A DNA stretch of 64,000 nucleotides. Origin: Escherichia coli (lineage in GTDB: Bacteria; Pseudomonadota; Gammaproteobacteria; Enterobacterales; Enterobacteriaceae). Below are positions 51,801 through 56,855 of the stretch, piece by piece. The stretch's first letter is position 1, and each line of letters starts with the position of its first letter. The DNA lies in NCBI RefSeq assembly GCF_001677475.2, contig NZ_CP015229.1; one strand, given 5' to 3'. The position numbers were made by a program.

Positions 51801-54800
51801 AGTGATAGAGGCCATTCTCCGGCTGACTAACGACACTACGCAGTACCTGCCCGTCAGGTTTAATCACGTCTAACTTGATGGGTTGATCCGGCAGAGCTTT
51901 ACCGTCTGCATCACGCAGTAAGCCGTTGAGGATTACTGTTTCACCCGGGCGATAAAGATCGCGCGGGCCAAACATAAAGAACTGTTTGCTATAACCCGGT
52001 GCACCAGCAATGTTAAATTCCGCTAAGTCCAGCGCCGGAAGTTTTAAATCGAGCAGCGTTGTCTGACCGTCTTTACGCGCCAGCAGTAATGCCGCGTTTT
52101 TATCATTTTCCAGCTGCACATGCCCCTGAGCATCACTGGTTGCCTGAGTCAGAGTCTGCCCTTTCTCATTTAATAAAGAGACTTCTATTCCTTGCTGGGC
52201 CGCGCCGTTTTCCAGACTTTGGATAAAGATATCCAGACGATTGTGATAACGGTGAGCTGAAACGCCGATATCACTTAACGTAAACAGCGTCGCGGGATTA
52301 CTGTAATCGTAACGTCCAGCCTGATTCATCACAGCCAGATACACGCCTGCCTGCTGAAGCGGTTTGATATCGCCCAGCGGCAGCAATAATTTTTCACGGG
52401 TGTTACGCGCAGGATTGAGATCAAACCGTCCGGTGTAGACCAGATCTGCCATCTGCAGCAGTTTGTCAGACTGCCAGTTCGCCAGCGAATTGCGGTATTC
52501 CCATTGGCTAATGAATGCAGGCAGAGATTCGGGCTTCACACGGAAGAAGTTAACATCGACATTGTTAACGTTGAGCGCCATTACCGGCAGCCCTTCAATA
52601 ACTTTACCAGGTAACAACGAACCACGGCTGGCAAAACCGACGCTGGGTTGGATATCGCGGGTAGTTATAGTTTTTTCGTAATCTTTACTGAAGGTTGCGT
52701 TGTTGAGTGCTTTGACCTCCTTGCCAATAGTGACGATCAAATCACGTTTCGGTTCGAGGTGGCGTAAACGCAACTCTTTAAGATTATCTGACAGCTCCCA
52801 GGCACCATCCACTTTGCCGATTTTCTTATCGACGACATGGATAACGCGTGAGAAATCCTGATCCGGGTCGAGAGGAATGGAGAACGTCAGCACCAGCGTG
52901 GCTGCGCCATCAAGTTGAACTTCAGAGAGATCCAGCAATGTCAGCGCCTTACCGGCACTCTGTTGGGCCAGTTTTTGTCGCTCCGGCGCGGAAAGTTTTG
53001 CTGAACTCACGTTTTCTGAAGAGGCCGCTTTAGTAACTTCAGAAGGCGCATCTTTTTTCACCGCTGTTGGCGCGTTATCGTTGTTGTCGCACCCTGCCAG
53101 CGCCAGCATTAGCATGCAGGCGGCTACGCGTAACTTTTTCATTTTTCATCCCTGCCACAATGGCCCGTTAGCAACGTCGAATAATTATTATGCGTGAGAA
53201 TTTACGTTATGTAATTCAGTATCACGCCCATACAATCCGAATTTTAGTGAGAATTGTGGCTCAGACAGCCAAATCAGCCTCTTTTGCTTGTCGCCTTTCA
53301 CTAAACATCCGACAATTTAGCCTAACCCCGGCAAAAATGGAGATGCCTATGTCCACGACATGGTTTGTAGGAGCCGACTGGCTCGCCGAACATATTGATG
53401 ACCCGGAAATTCAGATTATCGATGCCCGCATGGCGTCGCCTGGACAGGAAGATCGTAACGTTGCTCAGGAGTATCTGAATGGACATATTCCCGGCGCAGT
53501 GTTTTTTGATATAGAAGCGCTTTCTGATCACACTTCCTCGCTTCCGCACATGCTGCCGCGCCCGGAAACGTTCGCCGTGGCGATGCGTGAATTAGGCATT
53601 AACCAGGATAAGCACCTGATTGTCTATGACGAAGGTAATCTTTTCTCAGCCCCACGAGCATGGTGGATGCTGCGCACCTTTGGTGTAGAGAAAGTGTCGA
53701 TTCTGGGGGGTGGACTTGCAGGCTGGCAGCGCGATGATCTGCTATTAGAAGAAGGCGCAGTAGAGCTGCCGGAAGGAGAGTTTAACGCCGCGTTTAATCC
53801 TGAAGCCGTGGTGAAAGTCACCGATGTGTTATTGGCAAGCCATGAAAATACGGCGCAAATTATTGATGCCCGCCCGGCTGCACGTTTTAACGCAGAAGTT
53901 GATGAGCCTCGCCCAGGTTTACGTCGCGGACATATTCCCGGTGCACTGAATGTTCCGTGGACGGAACTGGTGCGCGAAGGCGAACTAAAAACGACCGATG
54001 AACTGGATGCGATATTTTTTGGTCGCGGCGTCAGCTATGACAAACCAATTATTGTCAGTTGCGGCTCTGGTGTAACAGCAGCCGTGGTTTTGTTGGCACT
54101 CGCGACGCTGGATGTGCCAAACGTGAAACTGTACGACGGCGCATGGAGTGAATGGGGCGCACGGGCAGATTTACCGGTTGAGCCATTGAAATAAGCTTTT
54201 TACAGGCAATAAAAAACCGCCGAATTTGAACTGACCCCATAATGTTGGACGGTTTATATTAAGCGGCTATCAGGGCCTGGGTTCGGTACTCTACCGGACT
54301 CAGGCCTTTCAGTTTCTGTTTTATTCTTTCATGGTTGTAATAGTGGATGTAATTATCGATAGCCATGCGCAACTCGCTGATATTCTTGTGTTCCATCAGG
54401 TAAAAACACTCAGATTTCAGCGTGCCGAAGAAGCTTTCCATCACCGCATTGTCATGACAGTTCCCCTTCCTTGACATGCTCTGTTTCAGACCAGCCTCCT
54501 TAAGCCGGTTCTGATAATGCGCCATCTGATATTGCCAGCCCTGATCTGAGTGGAGCAGCGGGTATTCGTCTTTACCCAGTACAGATACAGCCTTCAACAG
54601 CATGTCATCCACCATCGACAGAAGAGGACGGGACGCCATCTGATACGCAACTATTTCTCCGTTATACAGATCCAGAACGGGGGACAGATACAGTTTTTCT
54701 CCGCTGATTTTAAATTCCGTGACATCTGTTACCCACTTCTGGTTGGGCTTATCCGCACTGAACTGCCGGTTCAGCACATTACCCGCCACTTTCCCATACC

Positions 54801-56855
54801 GGCCTCTGTAAGAGTTGTATTTCTTCCTTCTGATACAGCAGGTTAAATCTAACGCCTTCATTAACCTCTGAACCTTTTTATGGTTCAGTAAGCTTCCTTC
54901 CCGGCGGATAGCCAGCGTGATTCGCCTGTATCCATACCGTCCTTTATGTTTATGGAACAGCGTTAAAATCTGCCGCTTATCATCGGCATATTTGTCTGGT
55001 TTTTTACCGCTCGCCAGTTGCCAGTAGAACGTACTTCTCGCCAGCCCTGCCGCTTTTAACAAGCGCGCAAGAGGGAAGTCCGGCCTTAACTCATTCACGA
55101 TCTGCGTTTTATCCCGCGTTTTGACGTGCTTTTTTCCCTGAGCAAGGCCTGCAACTTTTTTAGATAAGCCACTTCAACACGCAGTTGTTCAAGTTCCTCT
55201 CGTTCATCATGGTTAAGAGGAGCCTGTAAAGAAGGTGCCGGGTTATTTTCAGGGCGTTCTGGCATCGTTTTTCTCCCGCGTCGGCTGTCAGTGAGGGCTT
55301 CTAATCCCCCTTCATCATACAGGCGTTCCCACAGAAGGACCGTGGAGAAAGCCGGAATAGTGAATTTTGCACAGACTTCGCGAACAGACAACCGGTGCTC
55401 ACGCATATGCAGGATAACGGACTCTTTAAAGACGGGAGAATAGGCGAAATGCCGGGTGGTAAGTCCGGCTTCGCCATGAAGCTTCCAGGCAGCAGTCCAC
55501 TTACGAACGGCACTGTGATCGATACCAAAACGCTTTGCAGTCGCTTTCTGCCCTTCCATGCCGGAAAGATAGTGCTGCACAACCTCAAGCTTAAAGCTGA
55601 GAGAATATTTACTCATAAAAAACTGCACCTTACTTCGTTGAGTGTCCAACTTTTGGGGTGCAGTTCAAATTTGGCGGTTTTTTATTGCTGGTCTGGTTCG
55701 CGGCCTTTCCAGCAGGTTGACTTGTGTTGCCGGAGCAACGCAGGCACCCCACAGTGCTTGCTATCGCGGCAATATCGCCAGTGGTGCTGTCGTGATGCGG
55801 TCTTCGCATGGACCGCACAATGAAGATACGGTGCTTTTGTATCGTACTTATTGTTTCTGGTGCGCTGTTAACCGAGGTAAATAATAACCGGAGTCTCTCC
55901 GGCAACAATTTATTGGTGGTTAACAACCTTCAGAACAGCAGGTAAGCCCGAATGCCGCCCTTTGGGGCGGCATATTTTAGATTATCCGGTTCTGTTTAAA
56001 GTCACGCAAAAAACCACCCCAGCGACGTTCATAGAATGGCACAATATGTTCGGTAATAAAGTGGCTAATTCCTTTTTCCCCTTTTTTCACCTGACAAATA
56101 TCGATTGGTTCATCGCCAGGTAATGTATCGGTCGCTACACTTCCCGCCGCCTGAATAATTTCTTCGATATCACCATCGGCTTCAATGCCAATAAGTAAAT
56201 TAGGCTGTGCCTCTTCGCTCTCTTTAATTAAACAAATAAAAGCACGCTTCACCGGCTTAATAGTTTTAAATAAGGTGGTGAGTGAATCAATCATTTGTGC
56301 TGGTGGCTCTGCGACTTCCGATAATATCAGCGATTCACCGCCCTCCAGTACTTCCTGGCTGCTCAGCGGATTTCCTTCTTCACCAATCAACAAACTGATT
56401 TCACGCGGCATAAATTCTTTACCGGTTGGCAGTTTGGCATTAAGGAAGAGCGTTTCGCCAAGGGTCATCTCAAACAATGTGCGAACGGGCATTACGACAA
56501 ATGCCTGTTCGTCTTCAACCGCCTGTTGAAGTGCTTCTAACGAGGTAAAAAAAGGAATGACGCTGGTGCCGTCTTCTTTTTCCCAGTGCTGTAAATCAAG
56601 CGCGCTATCTTCAACCACAGCCTCGCCCTGCGCCGCCGTACCCGGCACCCAGACGGTGGATTCCAGTAGAGTACGGAAAAAGGCCGGGCGGTGCGCCGGT
56701 TCGGTTGCTGCTTTTTCCAGCAGGTCTTCAAGTTCGTTTTTTGTTTCGGACATAAGAACCACAATTCATTCAACGTTCGGGGCACAAGTGCCTGATGCGC
56801 CACGCTTATCAGGCCTACAAGGGAGTCGCAATCTATTGGATTTTCGCAATTTGTA

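Follow-up and report, generated by a model that had tools for sequence, protein, structure and literature searches.

An ISEcB1 copy at the dyad centre of the sseA hairpin points to a preference for hairpin loops in an IS3-family lineage

The window analysed here, a 64,000-nucleotide stretch of the Escherichia coli contig NZ_CP015229.1, carries an insertion sequence between sseA and ryfA/timP. We consider it quite likely that this element, ISEcB1, transposed into the dyad centre of the sseA hairpin, and that its placement was targeted and reflects a lineage that prefers hairpin loops. Taken alone the insertion is ordinary and the IS is catalogued; what counts is the pattern that it exposes. Hairpin loops have been entered repeatedly and independently, in both orientations, and the enrichment extends across taxa.

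Results

An intact ISEcB1 follows sseA

The element is identical at 99.9% of its nucleotides, over the full 1441 bp, to the ISEcB1 copies of E. coli B, BL21 and REL606; the name is that used in the NCBI annotation of the REL606 and BL21 copies, E. coli B (REL606/BL21) being where the element was first listed. By ISfinder convention, copies that share more than 95% amino acid or 90% nucleotide identity are one IS. With the REL606 and BL21 copies as reference the window element exceeds this limit, and on sequence it is ISEcB1, a catalogued IS at a new site. ISEcB1 was found in 116 of 5426 complete E. coli genomes.

Its anatomy is that of the IS150 group of the IS3 family (Table 1). The ends, read directly, are TGAACTGA...GCAGTTCA, and the terminal inverted repeats are imperfect (TGAACTGACCCCATAATGTTGGAC against TGAACTGCACCCCAAAAGTTGGAC); they agree at the first 7 bases and are offset by 1 nt from there on. 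About 19-21 of 26 bases match, so that the TGAACTG...CAGTTCA termini have the TG...CA form and the imperfect repeats of ~20-40 bp that are expected of this group. Likewise, orfA, with its helix-turn-helix, overlaps orfB in the -1 frame, and an A6G-type heptamer is the predicted site of the shift; it lies in the correct zero frame (CTA AAA AAG), from which a -1 shift leads into orfB, and RefSeq annotates ISEcB1 copies at homologous loci with a programmed frameshift. Precomputed Pfam matches on an identical or 99%-identical protein place the rve domain (PF00665) in OrfB, together with rve_2, rve_3 and HTH_21. The AATT duplication and the 1441-bp length agree with the 3-4 bp duplications and ~1.2-1.5 kb of IS3/IS150 elements. 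The sequence-only reading had described an intact IS3-family element with imperfect terminal repeats starting TGAACTG, an A_AAA_AAG frameshift site between orfA and orfB and a flanking AATT duplication, and it was right on all of these.

Folding also predicts a left-end hairpin of IS nt 2-48, available only to RNA that is transcribed into the IS from outside. Of 49 relatives that were folded, most share this architecture with different sequences (median z = -5.1).

Table 1 Features around the insertion, in window coordinates
Feature	Position	Strand	Basis
sseA, 3-mercaptopyruvate sulfurtransferase; its 3' hairpin is the target	53349..54194	+	ORF; annotated sseA at homologous loci
Left palindrome arm, GCAATAAAAAACCGCC, A-run and CCGCC	54206..54221		Perfect complement of 55673-55688
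Target-site duplication copy 1, AATT	54223..54226		One AATT only in empty sites
ISEcB1, intact, 1441 bp, IS3 family, IS150 group	54227..55667	minus	Transposase read on minus strand; 99.9% to copies annotated 'IS3-like element ISEcB1 family transposase'
IRR, orfB-distal end, facing sseA	54227..54252	minus	Alignment of both IS ends
orfB, 279 aa, catalytic rve/DDE domain	54259..55098	minus	ORF; Pfam rve, rve_2, rve_3, HTH_21 on identical protein
orfA, 173 aa, helix-turn-helix protein	55095..55616	minus	ORF; HTH_28 and related Pfam hits
A_AAA_AAG -1 programmed frameshift heptamer, orfA to orfB	55155..55161	minus	Frame checked by hand; RefSeq 'programmed frameshift'; motif also in ISPsy8
Predicted hairpin of IS nt 2-48; IRL tip pairs with Shine-Dalgarno region, then U6 and orfA AUG	55620..55666	minus	Folding, z = -3 to -4
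IRL, orfA-proximal end, facing ryfA/timP	55642..55667	minus	Alignment of both IS ends; 24/25 identical to IS1397 IRL
Target-site duplication copy 2, AATT	55668..55671		Read directly
Right palindrome arm, GGCGGTTTTTTATTGC	55673..55688		Read directly; empty-site comparison
ryfA RNA	55693..55978	+	Rfam RF00126, 263.7 bits, full length; starts 26 nt from IS end
timP small toxic ORF within ryfA	55820-55945	+	timP annotation at homologous loci
Unoccupied BIME, two palindromic units (Z-type and Y-type), IS1397-type target	56790..56890		Sequence; sub-threshold naRNA4 match; 1.1 kb from IS

The empty site is a terminator-type hairpin

Removal of the IS and one AATT restores CAATAAAAAACCGCC-GAATTT-GGCGGTTTTTTATTG, or GCAATAAAAAACCGCC-GAATTT-GGCGGTTTTTTATTGC with the wider arms. 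The arms are 15 bp long, or 16 bp when G54206/C55688 is counted, and the AATT is exactly centred on the dyad axis, inside the 6-nt loop. Folded as RNA, the restored site gives a hairpin of 18 bp at -27.3 kcal/mol (z = -6.0 relative to shuffled sequence). Strain GDSC2227PM (L002) has the exact palindrome uninterrupted, its flanks being identical for 25 nt or more in both directions, and the 90-nt reconstructed empty site is covered to at least 80% in 5309 of the 5426 complete E. coli genomes. These comparisons bear out the proposal, made from the sequence, that the IS entered the exact centre of a perfect palindrome, as well as the IS-free sequence that went with it. The palindrome does follow the sseA stop, but the 15-bp arm begins 12 nt after the last base of the codon at 54194 rather than 13.

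Intrinsic terminators combine a GC-rich stem-loop with a U-run just past the stop, and the restored site has this form, its CCGCC/GGCGG core being extended by A6/U6 pairing. Because the hairpin is symmetric, it would read as a terminator on both strands. Judged by these features the target is a terminator-type hairpin (A6-CCGCC-loop-GGCGG-T6), not a palindromic unit. A palindromic unit (PU) of a BIME was considered as the target and rejected: AAAAAACCGCC-GAATTT-GGCGGTTTTTT is without the PU consensus, and the true PUs at 56790-56890 are unoccupied.

ISEcB1 occupies other hairpin loops in E. coli

ISEcB1 lies in the same AATT after sseA in BL21(DE3) and HKUOPY1, in the opposite orientation. Strain 510016 and CP025886 carry it in a sister hairpin, again in the loop, 320 bp from the sseA-hairpin site and upstream of a second timP copy (AACAAAAAACCGCC-AAAA-(IS)-AAAATCA-GGCGGTTTTTTGTTG). 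The site used in most carriers is the nuoN terminator (GCCGCCGA-CATG-(IS)-CATG-CTCGGCGGT8); a terminator hairpin between two fumarase genes holds a further copy (CCGCCC-T-TCGG-(IS)-TCGG-GGCGGT7), and one metagenome site falls between an A7 run and a T7 run. Across E. coli, ISEcB1 is limited to four or five loci. The combination of site and orientation seen in the window was absent from the 5426 complete E. coli genomes and the contigs examined, and the host flanks of the window are only 97.9% identical to those of the nearest E. coli. The four papers that our literature search found to name ISEcB1 describe no target preference.

Some flanks differ from those of the site itself. In strain 510016 the nuoN-site copy is bordered not by CATGCTC but by AAAATCA, a loop remnant from the timP-hairpin copy of the same strain, and the join is at the shared GGCGG. 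At the sseA site, the AATT of HKUOPY1 is replaced in BL21(DE3) by cATT, in agreement with the CATG flank of the BL21(DE3) nuoN copy.

Relatives of ISEcB1 are enriched in hairpin loops

For relatives we sampled 80 loci from genome contigs and 7 from contig look-ups. The statistics cover 49 non-redundant sites (de-duplicated by flank only) of ISEcB1 and relatives with 55-93% OrfB identity, from Proteobacteria, Clostridia and Chitinophaga. At 27 of the 49 (55%) the insertion lies in the loop (within 2 nt) of a perfectly paired stem no shorter than 8 bp, against 0.8% of random flank positions and 2.0% of intergenic-proxy positions (P ~6e-33, a value computed over copies many of which share a genome or species and hence are not phylogenetically independent). 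In most sites the centre of the duplication, which is 3, 4 or occasionally 5 bp long, deviates from the dyad axis by 0 to 1 nt. Of 39 hairpin sites, 34 have a run of at least 4 A, at least 4 T or both (both at 22, T only at 7, A only at 5), and orientation varies. The GC profile around the sites is low in the loop, high in the stem and low in the flank.

Elements present in several copies use different hairpins. Each of the seven copies in Cupriavidus pauculus sits in a hairpin of its own, as do four of the five in CP032738, where the fifth (L117) lacks one arm. At about one fifth of the sites the hairpin is weak, imperfect or off-centre (for example L031, L062, L095 and Acinetobacter REP-like sites), and at a few loci the ends are ambiguous or a clean duplication is missing. 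Close relatives in the protein tree (neighbour-joining, star-like and unsupported) are not all inserted in hairpins: IS150 lies inside xynR and another IS3 element inside dcuC, so the trait is not uniform across the IS150 group.

Alternatives to targeted insertion

A pattern of this kind might arise by survivorship only, if ISEcB1 inserted approximately at random and harmless sites such as terminator loops persisted. All the data are indeed natural insertions filtered by selection, terminator loops are outside coding sequence, and some relatives do lie inside genes (IS150, the dcuC element). We nevertheless find this explanation improbable, since the enrichment persists against intergenic-proxy positions, which ought to be about as neutral (55% against 2%), the insertions are centred within ~1 nt of the dyad axis, and the same 4 bp were used independently in both orientations while the sister hairpin 320 bp off was also used; nor is the destruction of a terminator obviously more neutral than an adjacent insertion. 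The transposase could instead read a motif, for ISEcB1 approximately A-rich/CCGCC ... GGCGG/T-run, with the hairpin incidental to a symmetric protein-binding site. The E. coli genome has hundreds of terminators, and the few loci held by ISEcB1 would fit such a motif, as would the occurrence of CCGCC/GGCGG beside the loop at 4 of 5 ISEcB1 sites and 3 of 5 CP032738 sites, against 1 of ~12 terminator-like hairpins in the restored window (those ~12 being the whole background). The IS1397 and ISKpn1 transposases, too, reportedly determine the PU type used. Yet stems differ completely within one element, as the Cupriavidus copies demonstrate (GAGCCGG, GGGCCG, GGCCGCAA, GCCGGAA, GGCCGGTC and GCCGGAG); no position exceeds 0.7 bit of information over 43 clean sites; a Kluyvera relative (92% identity) sits on CCGGAC/GTCCGG; and a very similar hairpin in the window, GCCGCCC-TTTG-GGGCGGC at 55952-55973, which has no adjacent T-run, is empty. 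Recognition by sequence is for these reasons rather unlikely, although it is partly compatible with targeting of hairpin loops, as structure plus a sequence bias of the sub-lineage.

Two further explanations concern the arms. Homologous recombination or gene conversion from another ISEcB1 copy, via the near-identical AAAAAACCGCC and GGCGGTTTTTT arms, could have delivered the element, and conversion of flanks does occur, as in the nuoN-site copy of strain 510016 (AAAATCA for CATGCTC) and in the sseA-site cATT of BL21(DE3), which matches the CATG flank of its own nuoN copy. For the window copy this is very improbable: it is flanked by the perfect AATT/AATT of the site's own loop, which is the signature of staggered-cut transposition, donor flank bases are absent beside it, the 11-bp arms would be very short substrates, and the arms are unrelated between the sites of different species. 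That the arms are instead long outer inverted repeats of the mobile element, and not a pre-existing target, might be suggested by the BL21 copies, which match the window query 21 nt past the IS end; this match is explained by the BL21 IS lying in the same palindrome, inverted. The intact palindrome without the IS in more than 5300 genomes refutes the idea, and the arms differ at nuoN, at the fumarase genes and at all heterologous sites.

Comparison with known systems

IS1397 and ISKpn1, of the IS3 family, insert into the loop of the palindromic units, or REP, of BIMEs (Clement 1999; Wilde 2001, 2003; as summarised in PMC1525189), and the IS1397 copies that we located in CFT073 and CFIAFB20120266 lie in PU loops with a duplication of GTGA or AAC. 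ISEcB1 shares with IS1397 the type of termini (24 of 25 IRL bases), the size class (1441 against 1432 bp) and the two-ORF frameshift layout, as well as insertion into a GC-rich hairpin loop with a 3-4 bp duplication, in PU loops for IS1397 and with AATT centred in the 6-nt loop here. The two differ in OrfB (54% identity to the CFIAFB20120266 copy), OrfA (37%) and DNA (~66% in alignable parts), values that rule out ISEcB1 being IS1397 or an isoform, and also in target, which is a unique A/T-run terminator-type hairpin here and a repeated PU for IS1397. The earlier suggestion of behaviour like that of IS1397/ISKpn1 is therefore upheld for kinship with IS1397 (IRL, loop insertion, 3-4 bp duplication) and fails in that the target is no PU and the element not IS1397.

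ISPsy8, a REP-associated IS3-family element of Pseudomonas syringae, targets Pseudomonas REP elements, with a reported insertion point of 20/31-32 nt within the REP (Tobes and Pareja 2006, PMC1525189). Its left end (TGGACTGCCCCCAAGAAGTTGGACAC) is closely similar to that of ISEcB1 and the CTAAAAAAGTTG frameshift motif is shared; its duplication is 3 bp, and it sits in REP whereas ISEcB1 here sits in a terminator loop. In staphylococci, IS1272/TnSha1 (IS1182 family) target hairpins that include transcription terminators confirmed by RNA-seq (Furi et al. 2016, PMC4923244). As with ISEcB1, primary sequence is little conserved and one hairpin is hit repeatedly, in both orientations (PMC4923244). 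That family is unrelated, however, and its insertions lie in the stem, where the cuts are apparently blunt, part of the target is deleted and nothing is duplicated (PMC4923244), while ISEcB1-type elements insert into the loop, conserve the whole target and duplicate 3-5 bp. At the window site the full target is kept and AATT is duplicated. IS150, the prototype of the subgroup, resembles ISEcB1 in OrfB (60%), in its ends (TGTACTGACCCC...) and in an A_AAA_AAG-type frameshift as annotated. Unlike ISEcB1, the IS150 copy examined interrupts xynR, has at most a 5-bp mini-palindrome (GCCCT-GCTGG-AGGGC) and gives no sign of terminator targeting. For hairpin-loop targeting of the ISEcB1 kind, our literature search found descriptions for REP targets only.

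Consequences for sseA and ryfA/timP

From 54194 to 54971 the + strand has no terminator-like site left, and the disrupted 3' region after sseA folds no better than shuffled sequence (z = -1.5), which is consistent with loss of the putative sseA terminator through the insertion. As the two halves of that terminator are now 1445 bp apart, transcription from sseA probably continues into the IS, in the direction antisense to the transposase. On the other side, the ryfA/timP RNA starts 26 nt beyond the IS, which has probably displaced upstream promoter elements. Minus-strand transcripts from the ryfA side would run into the terminator-like hairpin at the IS left end. With sseA parted from its terminator and the ryfA/timP RNA start so close, expression of both may change.

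Discussion

Targeted insertion at the sseA hairpin would have been an ordinary IS3-type transposition event, in which a 4-bp staggered cut at the dyad centre duplicated AATT. ISEcB1 would then belong to a large lineage, including IS1397 and ISPsy8, that shares TGAACTGCACCCC...GGGGTCAGTTCA-type termini and appears to prefer the loops of short GC-rich hairpins, mostly with the A-run/T-run form that intrinsic, often bidirectional, terminators have. From natural insertions, which selection has already filtered, we infer that the OrfAB transpososome may capture its target by a dyad-symmetric structure or DNA shape and not by a fixed sequence. The cue might be a hairpin or a cruciform, or else an AT-rich loop that bends easily and is set between GC arms and A/T tracts. 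In the ISEcB1 sub-lineage, CCGCC/GGCGG arms with a T-run after them may be favoured in addition.

A broader reading is offered tentatively, and we doubt it somewhat more than we favour it. A multi-phylum IS3/IS150 lineage might read the structure of terminator hairpins and insert at the loop tip in either orientation, with the left-end hairpin and U-run acting as a replacement terminator for transcripts entering from the flank. On this view a general 'safe haven' strategy built on terminator loops could have given rise to the REP/PU targeting of IS1397, ISKpn1 and ISPsy8 as specialised forms, and DNA secondary structure or shape would be what a DDE transposase reads.

If ISEcB1-type elements do home to terminator hairpin loops, a single rule, insertion where the dyad of a GC hairpin has its centre, would account for IS1397, ISKpn1, ISPsy8 and many unnamed IS150-group elements. 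Such sites would offer a low-cost niche outside genes and beside a transcription stop, which could account for persistence at low copy number, and the elements would make a tractable system for target choice by structure or shape in a DDE transposase. BL21(DE3), a standard expression strain, carries the same hairpin insertion, reversed, next to the small-toxin locus ryfA/timP. The rule would also predict where new copies land, aiding the annotation of hot spots and the reading of variation in 3' UTRs and small RNAs.

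ISEcB1 interrupts a pre-existing palindrome after sseA

The element downstream of sseA runs from TGAACTGA to GCAGTTCA and ends in the imperfect inverted repeats TGAACTGACCCCATAATGTTGGAC and TGAACTGCACCCCAAAAGTTGGAC. Direct reading of the window bore out the sequence-only reading of an intact IS3-family element with an A_AAA_AAG site between orfA and orfB: a -1 slip at this heptamer continues into the orfB frame, and a second A6G run 26 nt downstream lies in the wrong frame. Megablast found the element at full length and 99.9% identity in 116 of 5426 complete E. coli genomes, among them E. 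coli B, REL606, BL21(DE3) and strain C. The matched copies are uniformly annotated as 'IS3-like element ISEcB1 family transposase', and the annotation includes a programmed frameshift. The identical OrfB protein has rve/DDE integrase domains, and helix-turn-helix domains are present in OrfA. The window therefore holds an intact copy of the catalogued IS3-family, IS150-group element ISEcB1, in a single copy. The adjoining 4 kb of host sequence (55668-59668) reaches at most 97.9% identity to any of the 5426 genomes; set against the 99.9% of the IS, this suggests that the host belongs to a somewhat divergent Escherichia lineage and that ISEcB1 probably arrived by recent horizontal transfer.

The tetranucleotide AATT stands directly outside both ends, the signature of a staggered cut. 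Deleting the IS and one AATT restores GCAATAAAAAACCGCC-GAATTT-GGCGGTTTTTTATTGC, a perfect palindrome with arms of 16 bp and an axis that bisects AATT, so the claim that the insertion lies at the exact centre of a perfect palindrome held base by base. As RNA, the restored site forms a hairpin of 18 bp with a folding energy of -27.3 kcal/mol (z = -6.0; equalled by none of 200 shuffles) that starts 12 nt past the sseA stop codon. Comparison with an IS-free reference had been set beforehand as the refutation test. Strain GDSC2227PM (locus L002) carries the uninterrupted TGAAATAAGCTTTTTACAGGCAATAAAAAACCGCCGAATTTGGCGGTTTTTTATTGCTGG, identical to the sequence reconstructed on the assumption of a 4-bp duplication, and the 90-nt reconstructed empty site is covered over at least 80% of its length in 5309 of the 5426 genomes; the test therefore favours the observation. 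A consensus terminator scan of the empty locus did not list the sseA palindrome because the stem was extended through the A/T runs, leaving no T tail, and our own scan, in which the stem is trimmed at the T-run, recovered it on both strands. In some E. coli strains the left arm is present as a 17-bp tandem duplication (AATAAAAAACCGCCGAA twice; NZ_CP021726 2620505-2620731, positions ~88-121), the boundary of which is exactly the dyad centre GAA/TTT of the sseA hairpin; either replication slippage or past IS activity may have produced it.

Features of the window around the insertion after sseA
Feature	Position	Strand	Details
AATT duplication	54223-54226, 55668-55671
ISEcB1	54227-55667		1441 bp
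orfA		minus	173 aa
orfB		minus	279 aa
Frameshift heptamer A_AAA_AAG	55155-55161	minus	zero frame correct (CTA AAA AAG)
Predicted left-end hairpin	55620-55666	minus	ACTGCACC...GGTGCAGT-TTTTTTATG
ryfA RNA	55693-55978		full length; Rfam, 263.7 bits
timP toxin ORF	55820-55945		within ryfA
Shared timP/sseB terminator	55952-55973		ATGCCGCCC-TTTG-GGGCGGCAT, then ATATTTTAG
BIME (PU array)	56790-56890		Z-type and Y-type PU; 1.1 kb from the IS

ISEcB1 recurs in terminator-like hairpins of E. coli

In BL21(DE3) and HKUOPY1, too, ISEcB1 occupies the AATT of the sseA hairpin, but it points the other way with respect to sseA, which makes theirs an independent insertion into the same four base pairs. When the junction was used as a query, BL21-type genomes matched 21 nt past the IS end because they hold the inverted IS in the same palindrome, which is alike from either side. 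The orientation seen in the window was absent from every genome and contig examined. In 510016 and CP025886 the sseA hairpin is empty and ISEcB1 occupies the loop of another, sister hairpin ~320 bp downstream (AACAAAAAACCGCC-AAAA/IS/AAAATCA-GGCGGTTTTTTGTTG, duplication AAAA), which in two-copy strains is located upstream of the second timP copy. In the majority of carriers ISEcB1 lies in the hairpin that follows nuoN (GCCGCCGA-CATG/IS/CATG-CTCGGCGG-T8), in others between the fumarase genes of class I and class II (CCGCCC-T-TCGG/IS/TCGG-GGCGG-T7), and in one metagenome contig it is flanked by A7 and T7 runs. The same inherited nuoN-yfbM site accounts for 8 of the 14 ISEcB1 loci fetched by match, and the nuoN site for two of the three contigs recovered in an exact-match metagenome scan with the IS end. 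All ISEcB1 sites found are loops of terminator-like hairpins. On its own, the insertion in the window is an ordinary one, a known IS at a site unseen before.

The flanks of individual copies show small exchanges. At the nuoN site of 510016 (L005, NZ_CP025851 1001554-1005994, compared with locus L001), AAAATCA replaces CATGCTC, with the switch at the shared GGCGG, and AAAATCA is the loop remnant of the other copy in that strain. The sseA-site copy of BL21(DE3) (L003) reads cATT where HKUOPY1 (L008) has AATT, corresponding to the CATG flank of the BL21 nuoN copy. These differences suggest that short tracts of gene conversion extend beyond the IS end into similar hairpin arms. A 40-nt solo match to the IS end in two E. 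coli genomes was considered as a MITE and rejected, being a shortened remnant beside an IS110 element: this right-end remnant (L123, NZ_CP148746 1850957-1850996) abuts a TGGACTGACCCC-type end next to an IS110-family transposase gene and looks like debris of nested insertions.

Related elements are enriched in hairpin loops

A search with OrfB, taking one genome per species, gave 80 loci at 55-92% identity in Kluyvera, Citrobacter, Buttiauxella, Enterobacter, Acinetobacter, Cupriavidus, Burkholderia, Bordetella and Rhizobiaceae, as well as in Halomonas-type genera, Clostridia and Chitinophaga. Most of these relatives have termini of the TGAACTGCACCC...GGGGTCAGTTCA type, and where both flanks were available they were nearly always the two halves of a hairpin, as in Kluyvera (AAAAAAAAAACCGGAC-ATCG/IS/ATCG-TCCGGTTTTTT) and Acinetobacter indicus (AAAAAAACCAGCCC-GAAG/IS/GAAG-GCTGGTTTTTT). 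One genome of Cupriavidus pauculus contains seven copies in seven different hairpins, each with a different stem sequence. Contig look-ups of closer relatives (78-89% identity) yielded seven more sites, five of them copies from CP032738; all but one of the seven lie in hairpin loops. One of the five CP032738 copies, which belong to an 86%-identical relative, has the right arm AATC-GGCGGTTTTTTG without a matching left arm (L117, CP032738.1 3471942-3475781), and this would suggest a deletion or IS-mediated rearrangement adjoining the copy.

We measured enrichment on 49 non-redundant reconstructed empty sites, counting perfect Watson-Crick stems with a 3-12 nt loop and the insertion centre within 2 nt. 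Stems of at least 8 bp were present at 27 of the 49 insertion sites (55%), against 0.8% of random positions in the same loci and 2.0% of positions outside long ORFs, which served as an intergenic proxy (binomial P ~6e-33 against the proxy). The duplication is 3 or 4 bp long, occasionally 5, and its centre coincides with the dyad axis in 12 sites and lies within 1 nt of it in most. Survivorship alone, as an account of the hairpin-loop sites, does not explain this 1-nt precision, nor the enrichment over other intergenic positions, nor the repeated insertion into the same four base pairs after sseA. The elements could also have spread by recombination through shared hairpin arms, and conversion of a few flank bases between ISEcB1 copies does, judging from their flanks, clearly occur; however, such spread leaves the site-specific duplications unexplained. 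The observation is real, and its interpretation is supported.

Runs of at least four A and/or T adjoin the stem in 34 of 39 hairpin sites, with both runs in 22, T only in seven and A only in five. There is therefore no fixed orientation relative to the terminator, and a fixed orientation of the IS relative to the T-run is ruled out; the single sseA site shows both orientations (window and BL21). When the sites were aligned on the insertion centre, information content was at most 0.7 bit at any position, whereas the GC profile was clear: GC content was 0.35 within the loop, rose to 0.7-0.83 at a distance of 4-7 nt and fell to 0.29 at 11-16 nt, the flanks being A on the left and T on the right. 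Together these argue that the feature common to the sites is a shape or structure rather than a sequence motif. ISEcB1 and its closest relatives may have an added sequence bias, as CCGCC/GGCGG lies beside the loop at four of the five sites of ISEcB1 and at three of the five in CP032738, and in the restored 62.5-kb window the sseA hairpin alone has it among a small sample of ~12 terminator-like hairpins. The shared timP/sseB terminator closely resembles the fumarase-site target of ISEcB1, lacks a straight T-run and is unoccupied, which may hint that the adjacent T-run matters for targeting.

Kinship with palindrome-loop specialists

The insertion had been likened to IS1397 and ISKpn1, IS3-family members that insert into the loops of palindromic units (PU/REP). 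Kinship with IS1397 and the loop insertion stood; the element is a different one and its target is not a PU. IS1397 flanks in CFT073 are printed in the supplement of Tobes and Pareja (PMC1525189), and a query joining this flank to an ISEcB1-like end retrieved two loci that are annotated 'IS3-like element IS1397 family transposase', the one in CFT073 and, in CFIAFB20120266, an intact copy. Neither distant blastn nor a large protein search had given IS1397 by name, only generic 'IS3 family' labels, and one candidate match (H168) was an unrelated IS3 element inside dcuC. IS1397 is 1432 bp long and occupies a Y-type PU loop (GCGGCG-TGA/IS/GTGA-ACGCC in CFIAFB20120266, duplication GTGA; AAC in CFT073). 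Its left end, TGAACTGCACCCCAAATGTTGGACA, has 24 of 25 bases as in ISEcB1, but the proteins are only 54% (OrfB) and 37% (OrfA) identical; ISEcB1 is therefore a relative of the palindrome-loop specialists and neither of the two named elements. The BIME near the insertion is unoccupied. The left end of ISPsy8, an IS3 element associated with REPs in Pseudomonas syringae, is TGGACTGCCCCCAAGAAGTTGGACAC, and its slippery site, CTAAAAAAGTTG, is that of ISEcB1.

IS150 shares 60% OrfB identity with ISEcB1, and the copy examined interrupts xynR; with the IS3 element in dcuC, this means that the hairpin habit is not universal in the subgroup. In MC1061 (L104) the CTG duplication of IS150 in xynR falls in the loop of a 5-bp mini-palindrome, GCCCT-GCTGG-AGGGC, possibly by chance or as a weak remnant of a hairpin preference. 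A neighbour-joining tree of the relatives is star-like and does not resolve the origin of the hairpin-loop habit. The closest functional analogue is IS1272/TnSha1 of staphylococci (IS1182 family), which targets hairpins, including terminators confirmed by RNA-seq, without sequence conservation and in both orientations; it enters the stem and deletes part of the target, with no duplication (PMC4923244). Terminator-loop targeting by IS3-family elements was not found in the literature searched, IS1272 being the nearest case. The passages found that name ISEcB1 merely list it, with no discussion of insertion sites, and an earlier remark may exist in the 2009 E. coli B genome papers (Studier or Jeong et al.) or in ISfinder.

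Consequences for flanking transcription

In the window the halves of the sseA hairpin are 1445 bp apart, what is now the 3' region of sseA has a fold no stronger than expected by chance (z = -1.5), and a terminator scan of the plus strand after sseA listed no terminator-like site before 54971. The IS end lies 26 nt upstream of ryfA, so any upstream promoter elements of ryfA/timP would now fall inside the IS. Between sseA and sseB there is one ryfA/timP module in the window and in BL21 and two in L002 (1230-2400), where the 5' region of the first copy is longer by ~162 nt. A promoter-like site scoring 10/12 (L002 2059-2030) lies ~80-110 nt upstream of the second hairpin, which reads as a strong minus-strand terminator; this fits an antisense small RNA, presumably TimR/RyfB-like, ending at this hairpin, which is also an ISEcB1 target.

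In folds of ISEcB1, IS1397, ISPsy8 and most of 49 relatives, the first ~20 nt of the left end pair with a region just upstream of the orfA start that includes the Shine-Dalgarno sequence and is followed by a U-run and then AUG, as in Cupriavidus (CACCCCAAAAGTTGG-ACA-CCAACTTTTGGGGTG-TTTTCATG). The pairing is kept despite sequence change, with a median z of -5.1 against shuffles (first ~55 nt; loci L021-L100 and L103). These are single-sequence folds; the loops of the left ends vary in length, which put the arms out of register in the alignment, and RNAalifold gave no structure. Only a transcript begun outside the IS can form the hairpin, and it looks like an intrinsic terminator or read-through blocker, a familiar device against activation by read-through transcription. 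A flanking transcript entering the left end would thus meet a substitute stop signal. That transcript would be sseA in BL21 and a minus-strand transcript from the ryfA side in the window, where the sseA transcript would enter the right end, unprotected.

A proposed mechanism of loop targeting

We propose a mechanism that draws on established knowledge of the IS3 family and on the anatomy of the targets. The IS would copy out as a circle and integrate when OrfAB catalyses attack on a pair of target phosphates spaced 3-4 bp from each other. A two-fold symmetric transpososome would capture DNA whose dyad axis is an AT-rich, deformable loop flanked by GC-rich arms, often with A/T tracts on either side at ~8-13 bp from the centre, and could do so through an extruded hairpin or cruciform or through the bendability and groove shape of duplex DNA. 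The statistically strong enrichment, recurring across taxa, points to a broad preference of the IS150-group lineage of ISEcB1 for terminator-type hairpin loops, a preference that links this lineage to the REP specialists IS1397 and ISPsy8.
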